Below, piece by piece: positions 3,006 through 31,035 of a stretch of DNA of 38,989 nt. The notes beneath the pieces are model-generated. The model saw only the letters and a program-made list of their open reading frames with translations, did no database searches and had not been told where the DNA came from. Source of the DNA: a virus (taxonomy: Duplodnaviria > Caudoviricetes). The DNA is taken from the IMG/VR virus record IMGVR_UViG_3300029290_000005, positions 1-38,989 of that record. One strand, 5' to 3'. Position 1 is the first letter of the stretch; the number at the start of each line of letters is the position of its first letter. The position numbers and the translations under genes are program-made.

Positions 3006-5495
3006 TTAAGCTTCAGAAGTACTTTGAGTAATCTGATTAGAATAATTCCAGTCGGTATTTTTCCATACATCACGTGCAGCAACACGGATGTAATAAGGCG
3101 TTGTTGCTTGAAGGTTTTTAATCGTTTTCGTAAGCTCTGTACCGGTCCAAGTTGGATTTGTGGTGGTAGGGTCAAAGTTCGGGGTACTGCTGAGCCAGAC
3201 AGCATAATCTTTCAAGTCCGGCACTTCACTAGGTATCCAGCTGACAGTTATAGAATCATTTGTTGCTGATGTATAAATATTGGTAAGTAATGGCGGCACC
3301 GGATTAGTAATACTTAGTTCAGCAAAAGAACTAATCTGTTCGCCGTTTTTACTGGCCACCCGAATTGTGTATGAACGACCAATACCATCTTGCATAGCCT
3401 CTTCAATTGAATAGCTAAAATCTGTATTAGTAGTATCTACCTCGCGTATTTTCACGGCATCAGACCATACTTGAACGCGATAACCAGTAGCACCAGTTGT
3501 CACCTGCCACTGCACCTTGAAAGATGTACCAACAAAAGCTGACTGCAAAGATAGGCCTTTTACACTAGTGGTGCGACCACCGGTTAAAGTATAGCTATAG
3601 GCGGTAACCTCATCTAATGTTTGCTCTTTACGCTCAAGACCATTAAAGCTAGTGAACTTTAAGAAGATCTGTTTACCCACTAGATTTTCATTGTATGGGT
3701 ATTCAAAGATAGCCCGATCAAGGCGTACAAATGGCTCACCAGCGTTATGAAACTGAGCATCATCAAAACGCCCACGTAGCACATCACTTAAGGTATAAAG
3801 ACCAGATCCGTTTAACGTGGCCACTTGATAATTAAAATACTCATCCCCCACTTTACAAAGTGTTTGATCGGCTTGAGCATCTTGTAAGGTGCCGCTGAAG
3901 ATACGACTTGCTGTATTTAGTTCGACTTGTAAAGCGGTGTCATCAGCATCAATGGTTGTCACCAATTGGCCGTATCGTGCGGACCCATAAACAGTACCTA
4001 TCATTTCATAGGTTGTATTATCAAGGCTGGTCCACACGTTACACCCCCCCCAATTAATGCCACCTGAAACAGCCACCCATACTTTATTCTTCCCATCAGT
4101 TAGATCTAGCGGAGGCTCAAATATAGCAGGTGCATTTACATTACCTGGTTCCTCATTACCGCCCTGATATCCATTAGATGCTTGTGAATCATATTCAATG
4201 GCAGATCTTGAACCTAAAGCAAGCTCTTCAGCTGTGATTGTTAATTTACCGAACTCATCCTCTTCAATGCGTGTGATACGTACAGGAAATTGATTTAGAC
4301 CCAATGCTTCATCTGTAATGGTGACAATATCCATTGGCTCTAACCGGCAATACTTCCAGCCCAAGGTAAACTCATATTCATTACGCACATAAAGCAATCG
4401 TTGTAAGCGAAGCTGTGCAGCATGTCGGGCTATTTTAGGCTCACAGAAATAATGGCTTTCTACTGGATCCTCGGTACGTAGGCCAAACATCTCAATGTTG
4501 GCTTGATCCTTGGCCTCAGTGGTTTCTGTGTTGTACTGGTTGTAACGATTGATATATTCAATCTGCACATGATTATAAGCATCAGTATCGCGGCTACGGC
4601 GAACTCGCACTGGTTCATCATCACTAATAAAATCATCATCAGTTAAGTGATAAACCGGTGTGAGATCCGGTGTAAAAGTAACACCGTTTCCAGTAATAGC
4701 TGAATCGCCAAAAGAACGGATCTTTAAACCGTCTGGACTTGGTACCACAGCACAATTTACAGCTTCGACAATCTCATTGATTGTCTCATAGGCGGGTCGT
4801 TGTTCTGTGAATGCAGGGCTAATTAAGAGATTGGCTGCACGGCAATAAGTGCGGAACTCTTCTAAATCTGCCATGTTTAAATTGGGTGCAGCTCCATGGC
4901 GAGGATGTGTAATAAAGTCTTCAATCACATCTGCTGGATTAGCATCATCAATAGTTTCTGACAATGTAATAGTGCTGATCACCTCAAAGTTATGATTTGA
5001 TAAGCTGGCACTATTTCCCATCTCATAATTAGCACATGCTACATATCCCAAAAATGGATAGTTAATCGCTTGATCTGGATGCTTTGAGACTAACCAACCC
5101 CACGGCGGGTTATTGTTCCCATCGAATAATTCAAACTTTAGCTGGTCGATTGGATCTAGCGTAATAGATCCTTCCTGCTTTGTTATGTACTGCTCTTTAT
5201 CAACCCATATCAAACCAATCTTCTTAATTTGGTTCTCACATAATCCCAACATGAGCGAAGCACTATAACTAAAAGTAGTGTTACTAGTTTTAGTGCTTCC
5301 CCCTTTACCGCCTGATTTCTCAACCGTAGTATGAGGCGTAGCAAGAAAATCACCGTACCAAAACATGTTTGCAGCTACTCGGGTTTTGCCATATACCAAA
5401 GGCTGACAAAGCCCGTAAGCTGATTGCTGGATTCGCATTGAGTTAATACGGGTATCAGTAGTACTAATCGTGGTACCGCCAAATAATCCACCCAT
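3006..5495 (-). CDS. Tail tip / host-specificity protein (lambda J-like) with C-terminal FN3-like domains
   Basis: QPLVYGKTRVAANMFW, ANPADVIEDFIT, LEPMDIVTI, LRGRFD motifs. FN3-like SITVSW...NLQATTPYYIRVAARD; position after NlpC/P60 gene. Confidence 0.9.
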   Translation of the reverse strand: MGGLFGGTTISTTDTRINSMRIQQSAYGLCQPLVYGKTRVAANMFWYGDFLATPHTTVEKSGGKGGSTKTSNTTFSYSASLMLGLCENQIKKIGLIWVDKEQYITKQEGSITLDPIDQLKFELFDGNNNPPWGWLVSKHPDQAINYPFLGYVACANYEMGNSASLSNHNFEVISTITLSETIDDANPADVIEDFITHPRHGAAPNLNMADLEEFRTYCRAANLLISPAFTEQRPAYETINEIVEAVNCAVVPSPDGLKIRSFGDSAITGNGVTFTPDLTPVYHLTDDDFISDDEPVRVRRSRDTDAYNHVQIEYINRYNQYNTETTEAKDQANIEMFGLRTEDPVESHYFCEPKIARHAAQLRLQRLLYVRNEYEFTLGWKYCRLEPMDIVTITDEALGLNQFPVRITRIEEDEFGKLTITAEELALGSRSAIEYDSQASNGYQGGNEEPGNVNAPAIFEPPLDLTDGKNKVWVAVSGGINWGGCNVWTSLDNTTYEMIGTVYGSARYGQLVTTIDADDTALQVELNTASRIFSGTLQDAQADQTLCKVGDEYFNYQVATLNGSGLYTLSDVLRGRFDDAQFHNAGEPFVRLDRAIFEYPYNENLVGKQIFLKFTSFNGLERKEQTLDEVTAYSYTLTGGRTTSVKGLSLQSAFVGTSFKVQWQVTTGATGYRVQVWSDAVKIREVDTTNTDFSYSIEEAMQDGIGRSYTIRVASKNGEQISSFAELSITNPVPPLLTNIYTSATNDSITVSWIPSEVPDLKDYAVWLSSTPNFDPTTTNPTWTGTELTKTIKNLQATTPYYIRVAARDVWKNTDWNYSNQITQSTSEA

Positions 5496-5921
5496 TTATT
5501 TAAGCCTCTTCATACGAAAAAACCCGGCAATTCGCCGGGCTAAACTTCCTTTTGTACCATCTTGGATAATCACTCCCTGATGGAGATAACTGTGAATGAC
5601 CTGCGGCCAATCGATGACAATTGCACCATGACTAATGCACTTGCCAAATTGATATAAAACGATGTCACCTGGTTGTGGCGGTCCCTCTACTGGATCGCAT
5701 ACACCTAAAATAAGCTCTAAATAACGCTGCCCCATCTGGTGCAAGTGCCAATCTGGTGGATATGGCCGTGGATCTAGATAATCCATGAGACCTACTTTTT
5801 CGTATACCTCACAGATTAAAGTACCGCAATCTACCCCAACTCCCTTAACACGGCCTTGGTGGTGATATGGGGTATCAAGCCATGTAAGGGCCTCTTGTAC
5901 TGCTTGTTGTCCAGTACTCAT
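5496..5921 (-). CDS. NlpC/P60-family tail assembly protein (lambda K-like)
   Basis: WLDTPYHHQGRVKGVGVDC, QPGDIVLY, SHGAIV, VIHS give the Cys/His catalytic pattern. Confidence 0.92.
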   Translation of the reverse strand: MSTGQQAVQEALTWLDTPYHHQGRVKGVGVDCGTLICEVYEKVGLMDYLDPRPYPPDWHLHQMGQRYLELILGVCDPVEGPPQPGDIVLYQFGKCISHGAIVIDWPQVIHSYLHQGVIIQDGTKGSLARRIAGFFRMKRLK

Positions 5922-5932
5922 ATTTACTCCAT

Positions 5933-5961
5933 AAAAAAAGCCCCTTATTAATCGGGGCTTT
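5933..5961 (-). terminator. Terminator downstream of the tail fibre gene
   Basis: AAAGCCCC-gattaataa-GGGGCTTTTTTT. Confidence 0.7.
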
Positions 5962-8165
5962 TAATTTTTCAAAACTATTTGCGGGGGTGCAGGATATGCA
6001 TATGCATTTCTTGCAAACTCAGTGATAGATTTCACATCGGTATATCGATTGGTATCGGATGTGGACCCCGCCGTTACAGCAATACCGGTATAACCATTTT
6101 TGAGCCGGACAAATAACAGCATGTTATAAATTGATGGCGCAAGCGTGCCAGTCTTACCACCGATAGCCCAAGGCTCTCCATTAACAACAGGATCAACTGA
6201 GCTGTCAATAATAATGCTTCTAGGGTTATTACCTTGAATGCTAATTGTGTGATTTAACTGCCCCCAAATCGAAAGCATTGTTGCGTTCTTGCTGGCATAT
6301 ACGCCAAGCTTAAGTAAATCACTTACCGTTGAAGCATGACCGCTTGCGGCTAAACCAGATGGATTTTTAAAGGTTGTGCTGGTCATACCTAGATCAGCAG
6401 CTTTACTGTTCATTCTTGAAATGAATGTTGCAGTGTCACCGCCTAAAAATGCCCCAACACTTCGAGCGACCAGATTTGCCGAAGTATTACTTGAAGGAAG
6501 CATCATATTAAAAAGAGCATCAAACAAAGTGATTTGATCACCTTCAAGCAAATTATTTCCGCTGCCTGTTGCAATATCGCCAACTGCTACAGTTAATAAA
6601 GTATTTAAAGTCATGCCAGACTCTAAAGCCACAATGACAGACATTACTTTCGTAACTGAAGCTGGTGCTATAGAAGTGCTAATAGACTTTGAGAATAAAA
6701 GTCCTGAATAATTAGCATTTCCAGATAAATCAATTGGAACTAAACCAGCAGAGGTTGCAGTAATAACTGGTAAAGCTGGCAATGCTTCTACCAGTTTATT
6801 GTTTTCCTGAATTTTATCGTCAATCACAGTCTCATCAACGCCTTGCTTTAAAACATATTTAATCGGATCGATGATATGCCCCCATGCTTGGGCCGTTGAA
6901 ACAGAATGAGAATAAAGAAGGGTTGAATCAAATCCTGTAGTATCAACTGTAAAATCAAATGTAATGCTGGTATCTACAGTGGATTGCAAAGTGAATTGCA
7001 CAATGCCGGTATTTGGAATGATTTCATATTTAGAGGTTGCCGAAGATGTTAGGGCTTTAACAGTACCCCCTGCTTCAGCAAATCCAGCTTTTGAAATTTC
7101 TTGCAAAATCCAGCCAAATTTATTTGCTTCACTGGCTAGTGTGGAATTATTTCCAAAATACGAAATTCTGTAATAACAATCCGGATTAGCACCATTCACC
7201 TTGATATCAAGAATGTGTTTCTCTAATGCCTGAACTGTAGTATTCGCTGCAATCGCTGCGCGAGTCAGAGCGAGCATCGGGTAAAGCTTGTCACGATTAA
7301 GAGTTAAAGAATCTTTACTTGTAAAGGGAGCTAAAGCATCTTCAACACTAATTTTACGCCATGCGGCCACCCCTACTTTTTGCCAAACAATATCTGGCCG
7401 TGAGGTAGTGCTTAACTCCCAATAGGCATAAGAACCAAACTTGAAACGCTTTAAAATACCGAAAGTAGCAGGAAAGTCAGAAGGAAAATCTGTCATATTC
7501 GAAACTGAATACAAACCAACATCTGTCAAATTCGTTATTGCTAAATCAGAAACTACACCACGGTTTACTAATGAAACATTCAAGATGTCAGATTTTGCAG
7601 TATTTAATTCGGGTAAGCTTGCTTGCTGTACCCAAGTAGACCAACTCGTAATAAAAGTTCTTGAGAATAATTTTCCCGACAATGTCAGATATTCCTGTTG
7701 AATGGTGTTATTAACACCATGTTTAAATACTTTTAAACTGCCAGCCTCCTTAACTGGATAGTTACGCGACAAATCAGCAATTACACTATTTAATGCGGTA
7801 TATGTACCCGGAACATTAAATGTATCCAAGTTGTCAGATTCAGTTAAAACCTTAGATTTAAAAGTTGCACTTGAGTTAGCAAACTCTATCGCCCGATCTA
7901 AATCACTCATATCGGTAACTGTCCAATAATCACCGTCTGCTGACCCCTCAGGTTTATCCCAGCGCCAAATTTTTCCAGTATCTAAAGCCTTAGCATAGCT
8001 AGTATTCTCAACTGGTCGAGATGCTCTTAATAATGATGTTGAAGAAAAAGAAGGGCTTAGTGCTTCAATTGATTTCAGGAAATCAATTAAAAACCCCAAA
8101 TTGGTTTTAAATAAAGCTTCGGTAACACTAGGACCAATAAAGAAATCTTTGTTAGGAATAGCCAT
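5961..8165 (-). CDS. Tail fibre/spike-like protein with C-terminal peptidase S11 (D-Ala-D-Ala peptidase / PBP fold) domain
   Basis: Lies in the tail module with no signal peptide. Pyocin-knob-like segment (NLDTFNVPGTY...NYPVKEAGSLKV...SWSTW). SVTK (aa503), SSN (aa558), MNSKAADLGMTSTTFKNPSGL and KTG (aa671). Confidence 0.85.
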   Translation of the reverse strand: MAIPNKDFFIGPSVTEALFKTNLGFLIDFLKSIEALSPSFSSTSLLRASRPVENTSYAKALDTGKIWRWDKPEGSADGDYWTVTDMSDLDRAIEFANSSATFKSKVLTESDNLDTFNVPGTYTALNSVIADLSRNYPVKEAGSLKVFKHGVNNTIQQEYLTLSGKLFSRTFITSWSTWVQQASLPELNTAKSDILNVSLVNRGVVSDLAITNLTDVGLYSVSNMTDFPSDFPATFGILKRFKFGSYAYWELSTTSRPDIVWQKVGVAAWRKISVEDALAPFTSKDSLTLNRDKLYPMLALTRAAIAANTTVQALEKHILDIKVNGANPDCYYRISYFGNNSTLASEANKFGWILQEISKAGFAEAGGTVKALTSSATSKYEIIPNTGIVQFTLQSTVDTSITFDFTVDTTGFDSTLLYSHSVSTAQAWGHIIDPIKYVLKQGVDETVIDDKIQENNKLVEALPALPVITATSAGLVPIDLSGNANYSGLLFSKSISTSIAPASVTKVMSVIVALESGMTLNTLLTVAVGDIATGSGNNLLEGDQITLFDALFNMMLPSSNTSANLVARSVGAFLGGDTATFISRMNSKAADLGMTSTTFKNPSGLAASGHASTVSDLLKLGVYASKNATMLSIWGQLNHTISIQGNNPRSIIIDSSVDPVVNGEPWAIGGKTGTLAPSIYNMLLFVRLKNGYTGIAVTAGSTSDTNRYTDVKSITEFARNAYAYPAPPQIVLKN

Positions 8166-8176
8166 AATTTTTTCCC

Positions 8177-8207
8177 AAAAAAAAGCCCTGTTTTTAGACA
8201 GGGCTTT
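8177..8207 (-). terminator. Terminator-like hairpin immediately upstream of the tail fibre gene
   Basis: AAAGCCCTGT-ctaaaa-ACAGGGCTTTTTTT. Confidence 0.7.
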
Positions 8208-8224
8208 GGTTAAATATAAATGTA

Positions 8225-9082
8225 TTAGACGGATGTTTCAGGAATTGGTACAAACGGCGCTCCACGGAAGCGAGCACGGTTATTAAAACGATTAGTACAG
8301 GTATCAAGCCGTTTATCACAACCTGGATAAACTCGAACAGCTTCTCCCATTTCAGGCATTTCTAAAAGTGGCAAAGTTAAAAGCAATGAACCTGCTTCAT
8401 GTAAGCGTATGGTACGTTTAATACCGATATTTGCTCCCTCTAAAAACTCAATAACTCCTTGAGTAAACCATCCTTGTGGTTGACTCACTTCGCAAAGGAT
8501 ACGGCTAGGTGTGCTATTTGCTGCAATAGTTGTATTAACTGCAAAATCAGCACTTAATAAGCCACAAGCACTATCAAACAAGGTGTTTAAGCATCCTGGT
8601 GTATACAAGTTTCTTGGCATTTGAAGCTTTAGGTTATCAACATCTGAAACTACGCTGGCATTAATTACATAACGGTCTAGCTCTGGCTCAACTATACGTC
8701 CCTCAAATAGCACTAATGTGCCAGCACTCGTATCAGTTGGCGTGTACATATCCATAAATATGCGTTCTAATTTAAAACGTGCGCCGTCTAATATGCCGTT
8801 GTGAAAAGCCTGAGCTACGGGAACATCGCCGAATTTAGTGGTTTCATTTGTCTCAATAGTGATAGATAAATTATCTACCTCGATGCCTAAAGATAGGCTA
8901 GTTCCTTCCCGGCTAATGATCGGACCATCAGAACGGAATTCTTTGCCATCAACAACCAGACTATAATCATAACTTGTATAACGATACTCAATGCCCTGTA
9001 TGGTCGTTATGGTGTACAAATCGGCCATGATGAACTGATCAGCATCTAGCAAGGCAATAAGTTGAGGTGATGCTTGTCTCAT
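8225..9082 (-). CDS. Tail tip/hub protein (DUF2163 / BR0599-like, lambda L position)
   Basis: GCLNTLFDSACG and PGCDKRLDTCTNRFNNRARFRGAPFVP four-Cys signature. Confidence 0.88.
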   Translation of the reverse strand: MRQASPQLIALLDADQFIMADLYTITTIQGIEYRYTSYDYSLVVDGKEFRSDGPIISREGTSLSLGIEVDNLSITIETNETTKFGDVPVAQAFHNGILDGARFKLERIFMDMYTPTDTSAGTLVLFEGRIVEPELDRYVINASVVSDVDNLKLQMPRNLYTPGCLNTLFDSACGLLSADFAVNTTIAANSTPSRILCEVSQPQGWFTQGVIEFLEGANIGIKRTIRLHEAGSLLLTLPLLEMPEMGEAVRVYPGCDKRLDTCTNRFNNRARFRGAPFVPIPETSV

Positions 9083-9732
9083 ATCTTAGTTCCTAATGAT
9101 CCGATTAGCTCGACCTTTCCAGCCTTCCAAAGTTTGTGCATAAAATTGACGTATTGCTGTGTGTCATCTTTAAACCGGCACCGATAGTAAAATGTACCTG
9201 CTATCTGAATTTCTATACCTTCTTCCAGTGGCTCTGAAAGTACATATTTACCCTCACTTGTTACTTGAGCAGATGCGGTATTCCACATGGGCTTTTCTTC
9301 ATTGGAATTCCACATTGTTTTAACTGGTGTTTGATTCCACATGTTTGGATCTACTTCACCAATGATCTGCTCTTCGGTGTTACCTAAGGGCAAATGGCTG
9401 GTAAAAATATGCTTATATAGCTGGAATGTTGTAGCCGTGCCATCACCAACAAATGTGCAATTGAACTGATTATCATCAGGCATCTTATAAAGAAATGAAT
9501 CAAATGCTCCCCGGCGTTCTAGATAAAATCCTTGAAGTTGCTGAAATTCAGTTCTTCCCTTATTTTCACGCAAGAAAGCGTAAGACAACGAGATTTCATA
9601 TTTAGGTGCGGCCTGAAAGCTCGCACGGAGCTCTCGGCCATTGATAGAAGTCATGATCTTGGTATTGAACATCGGGGTAATTGAGGTATCCCATTCAAGA
9701 CCAGGTAATTCTGGAAATAAAACGTTAGACAC
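9079..9732 (-). CDS. Distal tail protein (DUF2460-like)
   Basis: Start re-called at GTG 9732 after AGGAGG. FNTKIMTSINGRELR, RRGAFDSFLY, VGDGTATTFQL, YYRCRF; directly after the tape measure gene. Confidence 0.85.
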   Translation of the reverse strand: MSNVLFPELPGLEWDTSITPMFNTKIMTSINGRELRASFQAAPKYEISLSYAFLRENKGRTEFQQLQGFYLERRGAFDSFLYKMPDDNQFNCTFVGDGTATTFQLYKHIFTSHLPLGNTEEQIIGEVDPNMWNQTPVKTMWNSNEEKPMWNTASAQVTSEGKYVLSEPLEEGIEIQIAGTFYYRCRFKDDTQQYVNFMHKLWKAGKVELIGSLGTKI

Positions 9733-9742
9733 TAACACCTCC

Positions 9743-12526
9743 TTATTTACCATTTTTACCAAAGCCACGAGCGTAACTATTCAAACCACTAGCGACCGCG
9801 CGGCCATTATTCTTAAATAATCGTTGAATACTCTTCGCATCGATTGCACTAATATTAATGGTCGGTCCAGCACCCCCACCTTCAGCTACTGCAGCTGCTC
9901 CAAAACTTGCACCACTTCGCATAGCTTTGCCCATTTCACGAATAGTATTTGCATGTTGAGAAGGTAAAACCATTTCGTCTTCATGTAGCTGGGTGACTGG
10001 ATTCACACCTGATGGAATGTCATAACCGCCTCGAGCAGATTTGATTTTGCCAGCTAAACCAGCCACTAAACCAAACGCAGCAGCACCAGCACCTACAGCC
10101 AGAATTGGACCAATGTATGGAATAGCAACCATGGCTTTAAATGCGCCAGCCATGGCCTCCCATGCCGACATCATGATTCCCTTGATTGCTTCAGCTGCTT
10201 TTAAGCCCAATCGAGCTAAACCACCCGCAGCAGTAACACTGGTACGTGTTGCTTCTCCTGCAATTGTTGCTCCCGTTTGAGCCGCTTGACCCGATGCCTC
10301 AGCCGCCGTTTCAGCACCAACGAAACCAAGCTTTCTAGCTAACTTAATCGCTTGGATTCTGAGCCAACCTTGTAGCTCTTTAGTAGCGGATTGCAAGGCA
10401 AATGCACCCATATCAGCTAATACCGCTTTAGTTGCGTTGCTCCATGTCAATGTGCCATTCATTAAAGACTGAATGCCCTGATCCCAAAGGTTTGCAAGCC
10501 GAGAAGTGAACCCGCCGAACTTAGCTTCAAAGTCTTTCATTTCCGCATCACTGATTAAGCCCATAGACTTAGTGTCAGCAACTTTCTGATCTGTCTCTAA
10601 ATCAGAAATATTGTTAATGATTTGGTTTTGATTACCTTGCTTACCAGTAATACCGGTTTGCTCATTCTCAAGTGCCAGACGCTCTAAAAGACCTTGCCGC
10701 TTAATTTCACGTAATTGATCTTCGAGCTGCTTCTCTAATTGAACTTTGCGAACGTTTGAAATTTTCTTGGCATCATATTCAGCTTGGATCCGTGCCGCTT
10801 CAATTTCATAAAGGCGCTGTGCTTGCTGTTGATAATTGTCGATCTGTTCTTCACGAGCTTTTTTGTATTCCTCAAACTCTTTTAAACGAATAGCAATGAT
10901 CTTGTCTGAAGCATCCTTTTCCGCTTTGACTTTTGCGGCGGCTTTTTCATCAGCAGTCATCTTAGATTTTTCAATCTCATCTAATGCCTTTTGTAGATCT
11001 AAAGCGACTTTCTTTTCTTCGGATGCATATTTATACCGAATATCAGCAAGTGCTTTAGCTGCTTGTTCAGCTTGGCGCACCGCATCAGATTTACCCTGCT
11101 TTGCCTTATCCGACTTATCACCATCAGGATTGAGTGCCTTATTTTGTCCGATACCAGAAGTAACCCCTTTACTTCCACCTCTACTACCAAGTTGAGCATT
11201 TTGGATATCTATTTTGGCTTGAGATAAACGATCAAATGAGGGTGTTCCACTAAAGATATTAGAAGCTGAATTAATTGCGGCTTTGGTGGTACCAGCAATA
11301 TCAACCACAGTATCTTTGGTTTCAGTCCAGATTGCCTTAACGCCACCAGCCAGAGCCTTACCTTTAGCCAGGATCCCATCCGCATTTACAAAGTTTACGG
11401 CAGTACTTCCAATAGTCCTTAGATTACTCATCACACCAGACATTAAACGCACAAGATTTTGTAATCCAGCTCCAAGCCCTACAATAACAACTGCAACACC
11501 CTTAGCAACTGAGCCTAATGTCTGAATAACTCCGGTAAATGCTCCACCTTTTGTAGTGCCATTCATGAAATGACTAATTACACCGCTTAAAGCTGGCATC
11601 ACTGCTTGAGCCAATTGATTTTTTAAGCCGGTGTACTGCATTTGAAGTACTTCAGTTTGAGCCTTTAATTCAATGGATTTTTGAATTGCCTCTTCACCAG
11701 TAATAATCCCTGCTTCTTCCATAGCAGACTGGTATTCTTTCCAAAGCTTACCGCCATCTTGCAATATTGGAATTAATCCAGTGAGATCTGAGCCCATACT
11801 CTCAAGATAGAAAGACATTTGCTGCTGGTTGACTCCAGCTTCTTCCAACTTATCTACATAAGTCTGTAAGGCTTCCACACCATCCATCTTGGACATTTCT
11901 TCAGCGAGTTTTTTAGCACCCTCAGCGCCAGACTCCGTTTTAACGGCGATTTGCTCAAAAAAATCTTTAGCCCCACCAGATCCCACTGATGCAAACTCAC
12001 CGATCTTTTCATTGAAGTCTTTCATCATGTCTGAGAGTTTTTCTTGAGAAAAACCTAAAGTTTGTGCGGCACCAGATAATCCCTGAAATGACTGTATTGA
12101 GGTATTTGCTAAGGCTGAAAATTTGGCGAGTTCAACATTATTATTGGCCACTTCAATTGCCAATGTTGCTAAACCCGCTGTAGCTGCTACGGTACCACCT
12201 ACTGCCAGCCCTGCTACTGCACCCGCAGCAACTAGCGCACCACCACGCAGAGCTCCTAATTTGGAAGTAATACCATCAAAAGCCGAGCCTAATCGTGACC
12301 CGCCTAAAGCATCCCCAATCTGTTTATTAAACCCGTCTGCAATTGATTTTGAAATATCATCAAATTGGCGCTTAATTCCCGAGAGATTAAACTTAAAGCT
12401 CACCCCTTTAGTGGTATTTTCAATTTGCTTGGCAGATTCAGTAACAATCTTTTCTGCCTCATCCATGCCTTTTTTAAGCTCAGAGGTCTTAGCACCAATA
12501 TGAACTTCTACGCGGTTATTCGCCAT
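9743..12526 (-). CDS. Tail tape measure protein
   Basis: 927 aa, Ala/Gly-rich helical and coiled-coil; SARGGYDIP...QLHEDEMVLP C-terminus; follows the tail chaperones. Confidence 0.93.
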   Translation of the reverse strand: MANNRVEVHIGAKTSELKKGMDEAEKIVTESAKQIENTTKGVSFKFNLSGIKRQFDDISKSIADGFNKQIGDALGGSRLGSAFDGITSKLGALRGGALVAAGAVAGLAVGGTVAATAGLATLAIEVANNNVELAKFSALANTSIQSFQGLSGAAQTLGFSQEKLSDMMKDFNEKIGEFASVGSGGAKDFFEQIAVKTESGAEGAKKLAEEMSKMDGVEALQTYVDKLEEAGVNQQQMSFYLESMGSDLTGLIPILQDGGKLWKEYQSAMEEAGIITGEEAIQKSIELKAQTEVLQMQYTGLKNQLAQAVMPALSGVISHFMNGTTKGGAFTGVIQTLGSVAKGVAVVIVGLGAGLQNLVRLMSGVMSNLRTIGSTAVNFVNADGILAKGKALAGGVKAIWTETKDTVVDIAGTTKAAINSASNIFSGTPSFDRLSQAKIDIQNAQLGSRGGSKGVTSGIGQNKALNPDGDKSDKAKQGKSDAVRQAEQAAKALADIRYKYASEEKKVALDLQKALDEIEKSKMTADEKAAAKVKAEKDASDKIIAIRLKEFEEYKKAREEQIDNYQQQAQRLYEIEAARIQAEYDAKKISNVRKVQLEKQLEDQLREIKRQGLLERLALENEQTGITGKQGNQNQIINNISDLETDQKVADTKSMGLISDAEMKDFEAKFGGFTSRLANLWDQGIQSLMNGTLTWSNATKAVLADMGAFALQSATKELQGWLRIQAIKLARKLGFVGAETAAEASGQAAQTGATIAGEATRTSVTAAGGLARLGLKAAEAIKGIMMSAWEAMAGAFKAMVAIPYIGPILAVGAGAAAFGLVAGLAGKIKSARGGYDIPSGVNPVTQLHEDEMVLPSQHANTIREMGKAMRSGASFGAAAVAEGGGAGPTINISAIDAKSIQRLFKNNGRAVASGLNSYARGFGKNGK

Positions 12527-12594: not shown

Positions 12595-13170
12595 TTAAAA
12601 TTTCAGACGTATATTTTCTTCAGCTTTTTTTGCCTTTAGATATTCATCAAGATCTTCTTGAGTTACTTTAGAAATATCAACATAACTAAGCGAACCGCTT
12701 TCCAGATCAATATTATATTTTTGAGATAAAAGCTTATTATAAAGCGATCTACTTGAACCAGTCTCAGAGTTTAAAAGCGTGCATAAACTACCAACAACCT
12801 CTAAGTCTACTTCTGATTGCTTCCCCTTTACAAAAGCTTTCAATTGCGCATCTCTAAATATATCTTGTGTTACTTCCCTAACAAACTTTTTATATTTCGG
12901 ACTATTATCTTCAGCAGCTAATTGAATAATTTCAAAAGGTACAGTAGTATGCCACAATGATTTTCTTAGTTCACAAACAAAGACTAAATCATTGGTTTTT
13001 AGATCTTTTGTTGCCTTATTTTTTATTAATTTATCTATTTTATAAGAGTTACTTTCATATTCCTTTGCATATTCATTTCTTTGGTATTGCATATAAAAAT
13101 AATTCCCAACTATATAAAGAATTGCAGAAAGAGCTAATACAAGAATTCCTATTAATATTTTATTAATCAT
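12595..13170 (-). CDS. AT-rich membrane-anchored cargo protein
   Basis: N-terminal TM anchor (ILIGILVLALSAILYIVG); inserted between chaperone and tape measure genes with its own promoter-like and terminator elements. Confidence 0.75.
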   Translation of the reverse strand: MINKILIGILVLALSAILYIVGNYFYMQYQRNEYAKEYESNSYKIDKLIKNKATKDLKTNDLVFVCELRKSLWHTTVPFEIIQLAAEDNSPKYKKFVREVTQDIFRDAQLKAFVKGKQSEVDLEVVGSLCTLLNSETGSSRSLYNKLLSQKYNIDLESGSLSYVDISKVTQEDLDEYLKAKKAEENIRLKF

Positions 13171-19280: not shown

Positions 19281-20333
19281 TTAAAAGTTCACCTTAGTAA
19301 TTTTTCCAATTGGAATACTTTTCAATTTATATCCATCATCTTTTAAAGGATGCTTAGATTTTGGAATATTGGGATTTAGTCCACTATTCATCAAGTTATT
19401 AAAATAGTCTTTTTTTTCAATAGATAACTTATCCCACCAATCAGGCGACATAATAATATTATCAATCAAGTGAAATGTCATTTTTACTAAGCGACCGAAT
19501 TTATGATTATTCTTAATACTCAAGAAGGAATCAATAAATTTTTCATTAACGTCACTCCCCACACTCAGCCACGCCAATACAAAATACCATTTATTCTCGT
19601 CAGAAAAACTTATCAGCCCTAATGTGTCAAAAGAATTAAATTTTTCATCTCTAATACTTTGCAAAAAATTCCCTTTAAAATCTTGTTCAGGTCTTGTGGC
19701 TCCACTAACCATAAACGGTAAAGGTTGTTCAAACTCTAATATTAATGCTCTCAGATCAGAAAAGTCCTGCTTCTCTAAATATTGTTCCATTTTAGCTTTT
19801 TGTTGTTCCATTCCTTTTAGAGCCACTTGAATCCCTGAGTAATAACTTTTATAAATTCTTCTACAAAACTCTCTTTTTTCAACAACATATTCTGATTCAA
19901 TACTATTTAAGACTCTATCTTTATCAAGAAATTCAACTAATTTATTATAATATTCTTTTGTAAATGCTCTGTAAAAATGCAAGAAACATTCTTCTGGAGT
20001 TGATTCAAAGTTTTTTCTTTCAATTGGCGCAAATAGCTCACTATCATGTTCTGAACAAAATCCCTGAAAAGTTGAAGCTTTTCCTACCCCACACAATCTT
20101 GGCAATGACATTCCTTTATTTTTATGAATCTCCATATAATTTCTTCCATCATAGACATAAACCATCCCATTTTTGGCAATTTTACTTAGACTACTACTCT
20201 TTGAAATCGTGTGAGAATAGATAGCATTTCCATTACAACAAATTCTAGTTATATTTTTTGCCATACATGTTTTTAGCGAATGTCGTTTTCTAAATTCATT
20301 CCCAATTTGATGTGCTTTCCGTAGGTCTGCCAT
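19281..20333 (-). CDS. AT-rich cargo protein with Cys/His cluster (HNH/His-Me finger-like)
   Basis: CMAKNITRICC...SHTISK...ASTFQGFCSEHDSELFAPIE; interrupts the head module; own terminator. Confidence 0.7.
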   Translation of the reverse strand: MADLRKAHQIGNEFRKRHSLKTCMAKNITRICCNGNAIYSHTISKSSSLSKIAKNGMVYVYDGRNYMEIHKNKGMSLPRLCGVGKASTFQGFCSEHDSELFAPIERKNFESTPEECFLHFYRAFTKEYYNKLVEFLDKDRVLNSIESEYVVEKREFCRRIYKSYYSGIQVALKGMEQQKAKMEQYLEKQDFSDLRALILEFEQPLPFMVSGATRPEQDFKGNFLQSIRDEKFNSFDTLGLISFSDENKWYFVLAWLSVGSDVNEKFIDSFLSIKNNHKFGRLVKMTFHLIDNIIMSPDWWDKLSIEKKDYFNNLMNSGLNPNIPKSKHPLKDDGYKLKSIPIGKITKVNF

Positions 20334-25273: not shown

Positions 25274-26137
25274 TTAATTTTTCAAAATATCCAAATTAAT
25301 TACTTGATTATATAATTGAGGAAAAACTATTGAGTTATTTCCAACCACATTCATACTATTTATTTTTTCTGCACAAAATTTAAAATAATCAACTAACGAA
25401 GGATCGATATAATTTACTTGATAATTGTATGCCCCCAAAAAAGACAAGTGGTTGCAAGATGCAATACAACCTCCCAAAATCAAATCTCTTGAAAGACTTA
25501 TACTAAAATAATCAAAATTTAACTCATTTAAGATTATATTAAACTCATCAAAAGTTGTATGAATATTTTTCTTAAATTCACGGTCCAAAAAGATAGCAAT
25601 TAAGCAGTAATTAAGATGATGATAATAATTATCAAAGCCTTTAGCGAATTGAAATACTGAAGCTAGATTAGAATTAATATTAGCTGAACTAATTGAATTG
25701 CTTGAATTGTTCGCTAAAAAACTTACTCCTTGATTTATCAAGTGAACTTGTTGTTGAGTTTCCAAAAATCTTGAGTCAACAAGCTTTGAAAAGTTTTGAA
25801 AATTTTCTTCAAGTAATCTTATTCCTTGAAGCGCGTCTGCTTGAATTTCTAATTTTTCTTTAATATCAATTAAAGAATCAATTTGATTCGCTAACGTAGC
25901 ACTTGAATTTTTTTGTTGTTGTGATTCACCATATGTATAACCTATTGCAAGAACAGCCAAAATAATTGATATTAATGTTCCTGCAAATGAAACATATCCT
26001 AATGCGCTGGCATTTGTCGAATGTATATGAGAAACGTACCAGATAATACCTTGAATAATTGAAAGGGTAATTATTAAGTGAATCCACTCACGTTTAGAAA
26101 ATTTTTTTGAAATTTCCGTATTTTTCGGATCTGACAT
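25274..26137 (-). CDS. AT-rich 2-TM plus coiled-coil cargo protein
   Basis: Two N-terminal hydrophobic helices (second: VSFAGTLISIILAVLAIGY), heptad-like region, very AT-rich upstream spacer. Confidence 0.75.
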   Translation of the reverse strand: MSDPKNTEISKKFSKREWIHLIITLSIIQGIIWYVSHIHSTNASALGYVSFAGTLISIILAVLAIGYTYGESQQQKNSSATLANQIDSLIDIKEKLEIQADALQGIRLLEENFQNFSKLVDSRFLETQQQVHLINQGVSFLANNSSNSISSANINSNLASVFQFAKGFDNYYHHLNYCLIAIFLDREFKKNIHTTFDEFNIILNELNFDYFSISLSRDLILGGCIASCNHLSFLGAYNYQVNYIDPSLVDYFKFCAEKINSMNVVGNNSIVFPQLYNQVINLDILKN

Positions 26138-26272
26138 AGTAAATTAACTCAAATTTTTAAATATTATAAATGACTATGTAAATTTTTATAATAAATTATT
26201 TTTATTTTAGACTTAAATGCCCCACTCAATCAGTTAATCAAGTGGAGCTCAAATTCTGCTTTTTAATAACTA

Positions 26273-26983
26273 TTAAACAGCAGGAATCACTTTAATAGAC
26301 GTTGAAACCACATCATCACTATTTTGGCAAACAAGAGTGATATTGAAGTAAACGTCTTCAGCTAAAGCTGTAATAGTCTGGTTATAACGATAAATTTCAG
26401 TTAAGCCATCAACTGAAGTTATAACATGCTCAATTTCAGTTGCAGACACGTATTTCATTGAATACTTAACTGGCAAGGCTTGCGTTTGGAACAAAGTATC
26501 TAACAATGAAAAGAAGTCGTTATTACCATCAACAGTATTGTTATAACCAATATTCGAACCACCAAGATCGTAGCTATCGAATGTGGTCTGCAAACGAACA
26601 CCACTATGGACATTACCTGTAGCACTTAAGAAATTCTCAGCCACAACTTCAAGCGTATCGCTAATATTAGCTTTAGTAGCTGCATGGTAACCGTACATGA
26701 TCAGTGGAGCTTCAGGTGTACCGAAATCTAACGGCTCACCTACTGGAGTTAAAACACCATTTTCATATGTACAGTTATCCAAATACCAAGCCGATGCTGG
26801 AGGATTCGGAAGACTTGTTACACCAATGACAGTAAAGCCAGGTAATGCATTAATTGCTTCAACATTACTCAACACTTGGTCATAGCTAGTCGTATCGGCA
26901 ATCTTAACCAATACTGTATGACCGGCAGGCAAGTTTGTGTCTGTTAAAGTTTCGATTGTTGCTTTTTGCGGAGTAGTAACCAT
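26273..26983 (-). CDS. Hypothetical acidic, Thr/Val-rich protein (virion-protein-like composition)
   Basis: Start re-called at ATG 26983 (MVTTPQK) after AAGGA RBS; the longer ORF runs through two hairpins. Confidence 0.7.
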   Translation of the reverse strand: MVTTPQKATIETLTDTNLPAGHTVLVKIADTTSYDQVLSNVEAINALPGFTVIGVTSLPNPPASAWYLDNCTYENGVLTPVGEPLDFGTPEAPLIMYGYHAATKANISDTLEVVAENFLSATGNVHSGVRLQTTFDSYDLGGSNIGYNNTVDGNNDFFSLLDTLFQTQALPVKYSMKYVSATEIEHVITSVDGLTEIYRYNQTITALAEDVYFNITLVCQNSDDVVSTSIKVIPAV

Positions 26984-27051
26984 TTTAATTTCCTTATAAA
27001 AAAGCCCTATCATTTTTAATTGATAGAGCTGGGTAATAAAAACTGAAAAAT

Positions 27052-27089
27052 AAAAAAGCCCCGCCAATAATTGAGATTTAGCGGGGCTT
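27052..27089 (-). terminator. Terminator after the hydrolase gene (second hairpin at about 26998-27030)
   Basis: AAGCCCCGC...GCGGGGCTTTTTT. Confidence 0.65.
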
Positions 27090-27131
27090 CTTGTGCCGCA
27101 ATACAGCTAACACTTTAATTTTTAATCTACA

Positions 27132-27941
27132 TTAAACAAATAAACTAAAGGCATGATTAAACAGAACATGGAATCTACTACTACTTCCTGGCCATGTATG
27201 TCCCCAGCTATCATTACCTTCAGCAGTAATTTTAACTAGTGGATTTGTTACTGAACGAAAGACTCTTTCCATGTGCGCTCGGTTGGTATGAGTTACATCT
27301 CCTGCACCAATACAACCAATTGTAGGATGAGTTACATTCTGATAATCCTTAAAGGTTGTTCTTTGAGCAATATATGGCCCTCTCCAGTTTTCAGTAGTTC
27401 CTCCACCAGCTGGTGAATTTGCTACTACTCCAATAACTTTGTCATGGTATTGCGAATAAATTCCTCTACTCAAACATGACCACTGAAGAATACTACCCGC
27501 CCCACGTGAAGTACCAGTAAGGCAGACTTTGGAAGCTGAATTAAGATACTTCTTAGCCACCACATCATTGACAACACTTTCATACAAGTACGAGATAAAT
27601 GACTCTACTTCAAATGCGTATCTAATAAAGTCATGAATAGGGGCACTATTTGCTAAAGTAAAGCTCATAGGATGTTGGTCTGCTTTATACGCACAACAGT
27701 TAAAGTAGACATAACCACTTTGAACTACATAAGCAGGGCGTGCAAAAGTAGTATCTTCAAGGCTATCTCCATTTCCTCCATTAAACCAAAAAATAATATT
27801 TCGGGCTTGCTCAGTCCACGTATCATCATAAAACATCTGAAGAACAAGCATATTATCCGGAGATTCTACTGGTGCATTCTGTACAGTTTCACCAACGAGG
27901 CTTGTCATTGGAACTTTAAATTCTTTAATTACTAAAGCCAT
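27132..27941 (-). CDS. Alpha/beta-hydrolase (esterase-like)
   Basis: FNGGNG oxyanion-like loop, G-T-S145-R-G nucleophile elbow, GAGD acid, GHTWPG His; no signal peptide. Confidence 0.75.
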   Translation of the reverse strand: MALVIKEFKVPMTSLVGETVQNAPVESPDNMLVLQMFYDDTWTEQARNIIFWFNGGNGDSLEDTTFARPAYVVQSGYVYFNCCAYKADQHPMSFTLANSAPIHDFIRYAFEVESFISYLYESVVNDVVAKKYLNSASKVCLTGTSRGAGSILQWSCLSRGIYSQYHDKVIGVVANSPAGGGTTENWRGPYIAQRTTFKDYQNVTHPTIGCIGAGDVTHTNRAHMERVFRSVTNPLVKITAEGNDSWGHTWPGSSSRFHVLFNHAFSLFV

Positions 27942-27943
27942 GA

Positions 27944-29191
27944 TTATTCTCCTCGTAACTCATCATATCGTTGTTGTAATTGGTCCCGAACATTAATAGT
28001 GAAATCTATTCCACTACTGACATTGATGAATCCACGCGAATCAAATTTCCATTGATTACCATCTGTCCCTTCTAACGAGAAGAAATACTCTGTATTTGGT
28101 TCAAAGTAATGCAACGTACAAATGGTGAAATTGTATTCTGCCCATACGCCAAAATATGGATCATATTTCTCTGGAACAGCTTTAATCTCAATCGTTGTAG
28201 AGGTATTGGTTGCTGGCTGGTCACCATTATTGAACCAAACTCGTGCTTGAGTTGCATAGGCAGGGACCTTCACAATCCGATTGGAATTGACTACACCTGA
28301 TTGAATTCGGGTATCGTAGTAAATGTTGCCAAATTTATCCTTCCATTGAATTCGAGATGCATTCGACAACCCATCCGTCTTCATCCATAAATGGGTTTCA
28401 CCACTTATATTGAACCAAGATGTCATCCTATGACCGACATTAGGTGTTCCATTACCTGAAGAAATACTATTAGAGAGGATAGAACCATCGATTATCGTCA
28501 AACTTTTACTTGGTTCATTAACCAGTAACTCACCCATTTTCTGATAAGTCGGCATGGCAATTTGATACGGTGTAAATGGATCAAGTTTAAATAACTCTCG
28601 TGGTTGCCAGCCTTGATCACAAGATAATTGATAATTTGGAATATTATCTGCCGTTGGCAAAGTAGTTGTTCCAAGCATCAAATTAATTGTCGGCGCCTGA
28701 ATACCAGCTAATCCAGTTAATCGAAACTCTTCACTTTGTTTATCTGACAAGCGAACTAATAGTTTCATTGATCCACTTAGCAAAGCATGGGTTGGCTGTT
28801 CACCTAAATATTTGAAATGACTAACTCCCCCCTCATAGGTTCGAGACATTGCAAATAAATTTGGAGCAACAGCTGTATCTGTCAAAGTCGTATGAATCTC
28901 CTGAATAGGTAGACTATATGACTTGTCAGCAAATTTCTTACAGGCAACCTTTTGATTAAAAAAGCCAGTTCCATTACAAAAACGGATTTGTGCCTGGGCC
29001 AAAATAGGAGAAACAATATAGGGCATACTTGTTTGCGTGTATGTCCCATTCCCTACTGCTCTAATTTCCTCTAAAGCATCAACTCCATATCCACCCACAG
29101 TTCCTTGAGAACTATTCGCATAATATGCAGATAGATTCTTCAACTCTCCAGGTTCAATTTGAACTGGTGCATTATTTCCAGTAATAGTCAT
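27944..29191 (-). CDS. Hypothetical beta-rich protein with possible carbohydrate-binding module
   Basis: 415 aa, GAGGT RBS. TSWFNISG...RIQWKDKFGN...VKVPAYATQARVW resembles CBM-like modules of phage tail proteins. Stop is 2 nt from the hydrolase start. Confidence 0.65.
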   Translation of the reverse strand: MTITGNNAPVQIEPGELKNLSAYYANSSQGTVGGYGVDALEEIRAVGNGTYTQTSMPYIVSPILAQAQIRFCNGTGFFNQKVACKKFADKSYSLPIQEIHTTLTDTAVAPNLFAMSRTYEGGVSHFKYLGEQPTHALLSGSMKLLVRLSDKQSEEFRLTGLAGIQAPTINLMLGTTTLPTADNIPNYQLSCDQGWQPRELFKLDPFTPYQIAMPTYQKMGELLVNEPSKSLTIIDGSILSNSISSGNGTPNVGHRMTSWFNISGETHLWMKTDGLSNASRIQWKDKFGNIYYDTRIQSGVVNSNRIVKVPAYATQARVWFNNGDQPATNTSTTIEIKAVPEKYDPYFGVWAEYNFTICTLHYFEPNTEYFFSLEGTDGNQWKFDSRGFINVSSGIDFTINVRDQLQQRYDELRGE

Positions 29192-29685: not shown

Positions 29686-31035
29686 CTAATAAGACTTGTA
29701 ACGTGAACTTGGCGGATGTGGAAAATAGGCCTTATTTGATTTTGCTGTTGCTTGAGTTTTATTTTTCAACTCTGAGATTTCTTTAGCTTCTATTACTAAT
29801 TCAACACCTTTTTGTTCTGCCCTAAGACGAACATATCCGCGTAACATCTTTTCATTGTAAATGAACTGACCCTTTTTTAAACCATTCTTTAAAATAGGAC
29901 CATATTCTTCTTTTAGAAGGTTTCTAACTCTTAGTGAGAATTTTTTTAAATCTAATACATCACTGTCTTGAAATTGTTTCATGATTCCTAAGTATTGGTC
30001 ATACATTGTTTTAATGTATTCACCAATATTATCTTCAGCAACAATAGTTGACCACACAACCTCCTCATAATCACGAGAACGCTGATTAATAGCCTTTTCA
30101 TAAGGTCGAGACAATTCCGTATGTATAGCATCGATAGCTATATCAATCGCATTATGATAATCCTCCCATTCAACATCAGTTATTTGGGTAGGTTTGTCAT
30201 ATAACAACCACAATAATTTTTCAATTATCAAATGAACATAAAAAGGATAACCATCACTAATCAGGGCAATTCTGATATAAATTGAACGATCAATATTTAT
30301 ATCAAATGCTTTCATTGCTTCTATAGCAATTTCCCATCGAGCATCCCAAGATAATTTGGGTAACTCTATAGTTTCTAATTGACGTATAGCAGATCGATGC
30401 GAACCTAGTATTTCATCAAGAGTGTCTGCAATACCAGTAAAGATAAACTTAACATCGACACGCTTATCTCCTAATTGCTTTAAAAAATCAGCAAATTTTT
30501 CTACTTCTTCTACCTCTTTTATTCGATCAACCTCATCCACAACTACTAACAAAGGTTCATCAAAAAACTCTGAAAGCTCTTTTAAGATTTCAATTCCATC
30601 ACTTAAGCATTTAATTTCATTTTTAAAATTTATATATTCAACTTCACTTTCTCTCTTGAAAGTGAACCATTTAAAGCCAATTTGGAAGGTATTTTTTACC
30701 TTTTTTCTTTTTAATACAGTTTTATTAATAGCTTGAGTAGCGATAGTTGAGATCATTGACAGTACTGTTGTATCTGGAGCACATGAAATATCAATATAAC
30801 AGCTATGTCCTCCACACCATTCATTAGCAGCAGTAGCCGCTAATGAGGACTTACCGACCCCTCTCTCACCATAAATAAAAACATTTCTTCCTGTTGCATA
30901 AAGTGCTTGTTGTATTCTACTTAATTGTTTTTCTCTCCCTTTTAAATGCTCTAAAGACAATACAGGTCTTGAAGGAGAAACAACTTCATTCAACAATTTA
31001 CCAAATGTTTTTCTATCGTAGTTCTTAATAGCCAT
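29686..31035 (-). CDS. AAA+/P-loop ATPase (Orc1/Cdc6-like architecture) cargo protein
   Basis: LKGRE, YGERGVGKSS Walker A, VVVDEVDR Walker B, FIFTG, SDGYPFYVHL; AT-rich. Confidence 0.85.
   Translation of the reverse strand: MAIKNYDRKTFGKLLNEVVSPSRPVLSLEHLKGREKQLSRIQQALYATGRNVFIYGERGVGKSSLAATAANEWCGGHSCYIDISCAPDTTVLSMISTIATQAINKTVLKRKKVKNTFQIGFKWFTFKRESEVEYINFKNEIKCLSDGIEILKELSEFFDEPLLVVVDEVDRIKEVEEVEKFADFLKQLGDKRVDVKFIFTGIADTLDEILGSHRSAIRQLETIELPKLSWDARWEIAIEAMKAFDINIDRSIYIRIALISDGYPFYVHLIIEKLLWLLYDKPTQITDVEWEDYHNAIDIAIDAIHTELSRPYEKAINQRSRDYEEVVWSTIVAEDNIGEYIKTMYDQYLGIMKQFQDSDVLDLKKFSLRVRNLLKEEYGPILKNGLKKGQFIYNEKMLRGYVRLRAEQKGVELVIEAKEISELKNKTQATAKSNKAYFPHPPSSRYKSY

Follow-up and report, generated by a model that had tools for sequence, protein, structure and literature searches.

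What might a penicillin-binding-protein (PBP) fold be doing at the end of a phage tail fibre? The question is raised by P0001, a tail fibre gene in virus record IMGVR_UViG_3300029290_000005, a provirus record of 38,989 bases (CheckV completeness 91%) which was analysed along its whole length and is referred to below as the window. The nearest relatives of the window's proteins are Acinetobacter proteins. An initial annotation had proposed that the fibre ends in a serine enzyme of peptidase family S11 and had offered several roles for it, namely cutting peptidoglycan during entry, acting on D-alanine (D-Ala) decorations of a capsule, and taking up beta-lactams. Our analysis confirms that the fibre carries a predicted S11 tip in which every catalytic residue is kept. 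The fibre architecture and the exchange of tips between fibres are likewise upheld, while the K17 capsule as target and the virion as a drug sink are not, and peptidoglycan cutting is disfavoured.

Fold and architecture of the fibre

The assignment of the tip draws on profile, structure and conservation. The Pfam profile Peptidase_S11 (PF00768), whose cut-off is 27.6, matches with a score of 69.9 bits (E 3e-19), and the best PDB sequence matches are Bacillus subtilis DacB (3mfd, E 1.5e-18) and the Streptomyces K15 DD-transpeptidase (E 1.5e-15). An AlphaFold model of residues 460-734, with a mean predicted local distance difference test (pLDDT) value of 94.4, superposes on the K15 enzyme (1skf) with a template modelling (TM) score of 0.83 and a root-mean-square deviation (rmsd) of 2.2 A; all 39 Foldseek matches listed are DD-peptidases or PBPs, or in one case a design based on such. 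SxxK, SxN and KTG follow one another in order on this penicilloyl-serine transferase fold, exactly where the initial annotation had placed them (SVTK 6659-6648, SSN 6494-6486, KTG 6155-6147, with the open reading frame (ORF) also correct), and MNSKAADLGM (residues 585-594) and NPSGL (601-605) are further motifs of the tip.

No change at S503, K506, S558, N560, K671, T672, G673 or R707 is seen in any of 18 aligned homologues, the most distant of which is 29% identical. Among 29 close homologues the three motifs are kept in every one and R707 in 28, the exception being a partial sequence, and the ratio of nonsynonymous to synonymous substitution rates (dN/dS) of the tip is 0.06-0.14 in all six pairwise comparisons. 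The invariance of the catalytic residues, together with this dN/dS, indicates that the enzyme site is under maintenance. R707 corresponds to R248 of the K15 enzyme, which has a role in holding the carboxylate of the substrate and has been studied by mutation (structure 1esi).

Membership of the family does not extend to orthology with the named host enzymes: NCBIfam scores for DacA, DacC, DacD and PbpG are 29-58 against cut-offs of 294-765, the best being that for the PbpG endopeptidase (57.6 against 294). Assignment to the class A beta-lactamases is not borne out either, with E 0.29 for PSE-4 against 1.5e-18 for DacB. With the class C low-molecular-mass PBPs (MEROPS S11: K15 1skf, DacB 3mfd, Escherichia coli PBP5 and PBP7) the tip shares the fold (TM 0.81-0.83), the order and spacing of the three motifs and the arginine equivalent to R248. 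It differs from them in its 25-28% identity, in having no signal peptide, PBP5_C domain or membrane anchor, in its fusion to a fibre, in its GSGNNL/MMLPSSN signature, in a position in the tree apart from PBP5/6/7, and in falling below every NCBIfam cut-off. Genes labelled 'serine hydrolase' or 'D-alanyl-D-alanine carboxypeptidase' in prophages can be tail fibres rather than host or resistance genes.

That the tip sits on a fibre is indicated by the position of the gene in the tail module, by an anchor common to fibres with other tips, and by knob domains. Profile searches place an L-like gene (Gp84/BR0599) upstream and a K-like gene (NlpC/P60) downstream, followed by a J-like Phage-tail_3 gene. 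A model whose residues 5-96 represent approximately residues 99-190 of P0001 matches the knob of the R2 pyocin fibre (6cu2) with Z 12.6 and rmsd 3.2 over 90 aligned residues (VIA-align), and is also structurally like the knobs of AS12 gp42 and Pa193. At the start of the fibre the best 12-residue hydropathy is 1.3, against 2.0-3.6 in most canonical-looking S11 matches, by what is a crude hydropathy test; an export signal of the host DacA/PbpG type is accordingly not seen, and the N-terminus is a phage anchor. In each of these respects (flanking tail genes, fibre-type N-terminus with a knob-like segment, no signal peptide) the initial annotation had judged correctly.

A trimer predicted from three copies of residues ~102-431 scored 0.84, against 0.00 for the best control, with contact agreement between runs of at least 68% and partner pLDDT of at least 74. 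In calibration, 20 of 30 solved pairs and 1 of 23 single chains attained the mark used; the fibre job is unlike that calibration set, and resemblance to knob fibres of solved structure may account for its pass. The confident interface consists of the two knob segments only, the modelled part stopping short of the tip. The model thus supports, and does not demonstrate, a predicted homotrimer. For the middle domain, no Atlas match above 0.85 was found, nor any clear fold in a low-confidence model, an outcome that does not speak for a new fold.

Exchange of tips and the S11 lineage

The tip swaps anticipated by the initial annotation are seen from both sides. The anchor is matched in 2 of 50,697 phage records, of which the one inspected, phage 5W, has a SASA esterase fibre in the same slot, and in three of 247 Acinetobacter species genomes, two of which (G091 and G060) were inspected. 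The G060 prophage has the same anchor and slot with a GDSL/SGNH tip, while the tail genes of the G091 prophage are near-identical to those of the window and its fibre has two middle domains and a tip of another type. With SASA or GDSL/SGNH esterases behind this anchor and in this position, the slot is one that holds decoration-removing enzymes. The sister fibre of G091 (L078:5215-7509) ends in a tip of ~320 aa without a Pfam match.

Seen from the other side, the S11 tip occurs at 73-93% identity behind at least six different N-termini, of siphovirus and myovirus type, in proteins of 734-1213 aa; one carrier is a myovirus-type baseplate locus (L023). In three cases (two A. baumannii sets and one A. 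seifertii) the same tip stands on at least two different anchors, in contigs matching in extent and species, a pairing which fits a host-type-specific receptor-binding protein (RBP). The tip is rare: it is found in one of 247 Acinetobacter genus representatives and in five of 401 genomes of the family sample, one of these (A. rudis) carrying it on a fibre.

A homologue search of 1.84 billion representatives returned 59 matches at E up to 1e-30, and most of the top matches are without a hydrophobic start and have GSGxNL and LPSSN in common. A tree was built from 140 of 220 sequences, after removal of 21 near duplicates and of 59 without an unbroken match to the profile, most of these being partial or circularly permuted. 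The window tip falls in a clade of 18 rows (98 in the Shimodaira-Hasegawa-like approximate likelihood ratio test, SH-aLRT) with the fibre and the free copy of A. rudis, free or fused copies of Moraxella cuniculi and Actinobacillus arthritidis, and a fusion from Pelistega ratti. The last (P0071, WP_163764968) joins a glycosyltransferase of family GT4 to S11 and is nested among phage fibre tips. The tip lies far from host PBP5/6/7; nine host PBP rows, including the three of A. rudis itself, lie across a split whose support is only 89-91. A recent capture of host dacA or pbpG is rejected on the tree and on the GC content of the tip, which overall and at third codon positions (GC3) matches the rest of the gene.

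In phage relatives S11 is fused to anchors of T7, P2, BppU and DUF4815 type, to LamG or a carbohydrate-binding module (CBM), and to an M14 carboxypeptidase, in a scan of 48 + 30 chosen proteins most of which have no second family. Cellular relatives are without an obvious signal peptide, and members stand beside or fused to MurF-like ligases (our identifiers L011, L012, L013, P0037, P0112), PGA_cap with a Mur ligase (P0121), or a YheCD ATP-grasp (P0146, L094). MurF-like, ATP-grasp and PGA_cap enzymes are amide-forming and capsule-associated, and make amide-decorated surface polymers. Because the cellular members adjoin such enzymes, we infer by analogy that the lineage may be linked with surface polymers decorated by amino acids and not with turnover of the wall.

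Several variants of the lineage were seen in passing. A circularly permuted form, with the KTG half before the SxxK half, occurs in the Staphylococcus phages UHP46 and ZCSS1 (L008:6488-7807) and in many tail proteins of gut and Gram-positive phages (P0031, P0032, P0038-P0050, many of P0081-P0200). Four fibres have two S11 domains (P0019, P0020, P0022, P0126); in the first three of these the first S11 has KGG for KTG and a lectin-like region precedes each S11. In three Erwiniaceae a free S11 of the lineage lies directly upstream of a canonical dacD (L014:1340-3617, L015:7905-10120, L016:7983-10119). Free, signal-less S11 genes of the phage type lie between housekeeping genes in three Moraxellaceae chromosomes (L080-L082; G384, G364, G408), one of them still preceded by a fragment of the middle domain, which suggests that the free copies are a domesticated fibre tip. 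The lysis region of the A. rudis prophage (L010:6537-11765) combines a fibre-S11 gene, a holin-like gene, a second free S11, an M14 carboxypeptidase and, on the opposite strand, a hexapeptide acyltransferase; this group is possibly a surface-editing cassette.

Among described phage proteins, the closest is gp77 of Erythrobacter phage vB_EliS-R6L, a tail-module protein of 755 aa from the same S11 lineage and the top BFVD match (TM 0.84), which differs in having S11 at its centre with LamG after it. The accessible text of the R6L paper names S11 in its annotation table only, in a single occurrence. A mycobacteriophage tail protein also has a serine domain of PBP/beta-lactamase fold, for which action on the cell surface at adsorption is proposed in PMC5831693. 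Its structural likeness to the tip is weak (TM 0.45-0.48, 10-11% identity, E 6e-3 or worse), so that it probably represents another family of the fold; moreover, its host is without a Gram-negative outer membrane, and as far as was checked the domain is not on a knob fibre. These two mentions, and no functional study, are what the open-licence text of PMC and bioRxiv yielded for a phage fibre of S11 type. The known fibre tips of Acinetobacter phages are, to our knowledge, lyases, glycosidases and SGNH esterases. Carboxypeptidase, penicillin and lactamase domains have no mention in the accessible text of a survey of Acinetobacter phage fibres (PMC11058221).

Proposed substrate and mode of action

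We propose, and give about an even chance of being right, that the swappable S11 tip is a receptor-binding amidase or esterase acting on an outer polymer of the host, from which it would take off a small or D-amino acid held by an acyl linkage (D-Ala, for example). The fibre, expressed from the late operon, would hang on the tail tip by its anchor, as slot, anchor homology, knob fold and trimer model suggest. A side group ending in a carboxylate would then be held through KTG and R707, residues which are present and whose role is taken from PBP chemistry; where an amide bond joins an amino acid to a uronic acid, such a free carboxylate would be present, a shape suited to a carboxypeptidase. 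S503 would form an acyl-enzyme and the amino acid be released much as by a DD-carboxypeptidase, from a decorated capsule or adhesin-linked polymer and not from a stem peptide. Repeated binding and clipping may carry the virion through the coat, as is thought for O-deacetylase tips, after which the J-like tip protein and the NlpC/P60 peptidase would deal with membrane and wall. Modifying a receptor instead of cutting it has precedent, according to PMC5380687 and PMC11058221, in the SGNH/SASA fibres, which in Acinetobacter siphophages share slot and anchor with P0001 (5W, G060), and in the Vi/c341 deacetylase tailspikes. The S11 tip would differ from these in its chemistry, an SxxK serine amidase/esterase type with a carboxylate site in place of the SGNH acetyl esterase fold.

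Several observations weigh against this proposal. Firstly, all characterised S11 enzymes known to us act on peptidoglycan peptides. Secondly, tips shared within one chromosome are also explicable by recombination between co-resident prophages. Thirdly, the host polymers do not agree. The initial annotation was right about an Acinetobacter capsule with amide-linked D-Ala: according to PMC9676051 and bioRxiv 10.64898/2026.07.20.739706, the K17 capsule carries a D-alanine amide, Alt1 is encoded by only three K loci, and KL18 is common (3,778 genomes); KL17, KL18 and KL237 make up the K17 type. A locus of KL17 or KL18 type was found in none of the three testable hosts of near-identical tips (AB945B12, X13 and X1), and the K loci of all three differ. 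AB945B12, typed from a fragmented assembly with confidence 'None', has a novel K locus whose matched genes include a KL118-like wzx and a ptr2-like gene (85.8%) but not alt1. Compared with the K locus of G091, the X13 contig shares gna and the next three genes, which appear to be dgaABC-type by reading of their ORFs, and then has 11,772 other bases up to galU. In X1, possibly the run from which the window derives, contigs at depth 16-17 (prophage 15) have fragments of a 2-epimerase-like gene and a gna that is divergent, the locus being assigned by depth alone. The gene list of KL18 has neither dga nor an epimerase of this kind. Isolate runs X3 and X13, from two studies, contain the fibre through the whole tip, and run X2 only a 240-bp piece. 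As the three testable hosts have different K loci, none of them KL17/18, no single capsule type explains the carriers, and K17 as a general target is rejected. The differences weaken a capsule-decoration reading, although unseen parts of the loci may share a transferase. Finally, the K locus of A. rudis, whose tip is 45% identical, has Fuc3N genes and a FemAB-like gene, but this is a single case against a background of 25 of 247, on a tip of only that identity.

A receptor made independently of K type might be sought elsewhere. Besides its K locus, A. rudis has a second one of kps type and one linked to an adhesin, the last encoding a YheCD ATP-grasp ligase. Adhesin-linked loci of this kind are recognised by a 550-aa protein of no assigned family, encoded in 70 of 247 Acinetobacter genomes directly after a giant Ig-repeat (Bap-type) adhesin gene; a PGA_cap gene follows in the four larger genomes inspected, and ATP-grasp or S11 elsewhere, the locus of G155 containing a member of the S11 lineage (E 8e-51 to the lineage profile). 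We regard this locus as a candidate, and a lead only, for making the receptor; it may encode an uncharacterised system, tied to the adhesin, that makes a polymer or a modification. When the CapA protein next to Bap was considered as having a dead S11 in its N-terminal part, hmmsearch gave no match and hhalign a probability of 2% (E 0.024). In Pseudomonas the 550-aa protein is fused to a MurF-like ligase. Loci with the protein, those of Acinetobacter and Pseudomonas taken together, are L104:6511-9893, L103:10393-14907, L094:3627-9015 and L030:10009-13173.

The differing K loci would be accounted for by a universal substrate, and the tip may instead be a peptidoglycan DD-peptidase, a carboxypeptidase or endopeptidase serving to loosen the wall during entry or, as a free protein, to aid lysis. 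Fold and motifs are those of DD-peptidases, and the best NCBIfam score is that of PbpG, if far below its cut-off; Gram-positive relatives anchored by BppU meet an exposed wall, and the mycobacteriophage tail protein (PMC5831693) is a precedent. Set against this is the established topology of the Gram-negative envelope, in which the distal end of a side fibre is outside the outer membrane. The window also has a GH108 endolysin and a separate NlpC/P60 gene placed like g14 of RcGTA, a gene shown to encode a peptidoglycan hydrolase. A tip that is rare and replaceable by esterases is, furthermore, unlike a core entry function. We consider wall cutting, the first of the roles initially offered, unlikely on account of the topology and of the separate NlpC/P60 gene.

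Equally, the tip may mainly bind, gripping a carboxylate that mimics D-Ala (a pyruvate ketal, lactyl group or uronate) or trapping the receptor as a long-lived acyl-enzyme, so that adsorption becomes irreversible. The top structural match is a transpeptidase, K15, the carboxylate site formed by KTG and R707 is kept, and one typed host, AB945B12, has a pyruvyltransferase-like gene (family background 35 of 247). A ketal, however, is no substrate for a serine hydrolase, and yet not one of the 18 diverse or 29 close homologues departs from the nucleophile triad; A. rudis, moreover, gave no match to the pyruvyltransferase family PF04230. Among 30 pyruvyltransferase loci, none was recognised as a KL118/124-type reference locus. 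Binding as the main function is, in our estimation, improbable.

A third alternative, that the enzyme is expressed by the lysogen and edits the host surface to exclude superinfection without being part of the virion, would suit the free copy which lies beside the A. rudis prophage fibre with an M14 peptidase and an acyltransferase, as well as the lone copies in three Moraxellaceae chromosomes. Here, though, the tip is fused to anchor and knob in a gene that begins 60 bp past the hub gene, in the middle of the late operon and behind a terminator-like hairpin, and promoter-like matches are at chance level (10 against 9.5 expected), which makes expression of this kind very unlikely. Hardly credible is a beta-lactam sink or a beta-lactamase protecting the host: a Beta-lactamase2 profile matches weakly (23.2 bits) and PBP folds are established to be acylated by penicillins, but 3-18 sites per virion at 1e10 plaque-forming units (pfu)/ml amount to 0.05-0.3 nM, far below drug levels, which are micromolar, there is no export signal, and relatives come, where their sources were checked, mostly from soil, rhizosphere and fermentation-type material rather than from clinics. 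By this arithmetic (at most 0.3 nM) the drug sink of the initial annotation is ruled out.

To return to the removal of an acyl-linked amino acid, a wider version may be ventured, tentatively and in the expectation that it probably claims too much. PBP-fold RBPs would form a widespread and undescribed class, a mirror image of the M14 tips, that strips or covalently captures D-amino-acid decorations made by MurF-like/ATP-grasp/CapA loci, possibly by the Bap-adjacent locus, and adsorption would be blockable by beta-lactams. By analogy with their established specificities, M14 tips would suit L-residues and S11 tips D-residues. If true, a PBP-fold tip would represent a new chemistry for host recognition by phages, provide a tool enzyme for amino-acid-decorated glycans, and point to an uncharacterised surface polymer from such loci. 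An attachment enzyme which penicillins might block would also bear on phage-antibiotic combinations.

Gene neighbourhood and other features

Besides the tail genes in Table 1, the window has genes for a terminase, portal and capsid, a holin-like protein, the GH108 endolysin, a repressor and an integrase. The region has two terminator-like hairpins where shuffled sequence would give 3.2, a count which is not significant by itself.

Table 1. Positions in the window of the fibre gene, its parts and its neighbours
Feature	Position	Strand	Basis
Tail fibre gene P0001, 734 aa	5961..8165	-	ORF call and profile searches
N-terminal anchor, residues 1-98	7872..8165	-	Common to phage 5W (61%) and G091 prophage (64%), both with other tips
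Pyocin-knob domain, residues ~99-190	7596..7871	-	Structural match 6cu2; weak sequence match 6cl5; PHROG tail matches
Second knob-like repeat, residues ~191-278	7332..7595	-	Duplicated in longer relatives; in predicted trimer interface
Middle beta-rich domain, residues ~279-445	6831..7331	-	phrog_14083, E 6e-15; twice in G091 fibre; also in Pseudomonas phage Zuri gp89
Short helical neck, residues ~446-470	6756..6830	-	Helix in low-confidence model
S11 PBP-fold tip (predicted), residues ~471-734	5964..6755	-	Pfam, PDB sequence, AlphaFold model
SxxK (SVTK), residues 503-506; nucleophile S503 and K506	6648..6659	-	Motif reading
Lineage signature loop GSGNNL, residues 534-539	6549..6566	-	Alignment
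SxN (SSN), S558-N560	6486..6494	-	Motif reading
KTG, residues 671-673	6147..6155	-	Motif reading
R707, aligned with R248 of the K15 enzyme	6045..6047	-	Invariant in 18/18 aligned homologues
Hairpin and T run directly after fibre stop codon, 9-nt loop	5933..5962	-	By eye; absent from the scanner's list
Terminator-like hairpin and T run just before fibre start	8182..8207	-	Terminator scan; similar hairpin precedes fibre in relatives with other tips
Baseplate hub gene, L-like, Gp84_N and Phage_BR0599	8225..9082	-	Profile search; upstream neighbour of fibre gene
Distal tail protein (DUF2460) and tape measure gene, upstream of hub	9079..12526	-	Profile and PHROG
NlpC/P60 peptidase, K-like, Cys and His motifs present; candidate tail peptidoglycan enzyme	5496..5921	-	Profile; RcGTA analogy
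J-like central tail-tip protein, Phage-tail_3, Rcc01698_C and fn3	3006..5495	-	Profile and PHROG

Bases 1-600 of the window had a match in none of the five genomes compared. Inserted genes without a family, with lipoprotein- or membrane-like N-termini, lie in the lysis module (1817-2347) and the tail module (12595-13170). Low-GC genes, also without a family, are found in the head module and after the terminase region (19281-20333, 25274-29191, 29686-31035); they adjoin a gene for a STAND/AAA-type ATPase and are possible defence or moron cargo.

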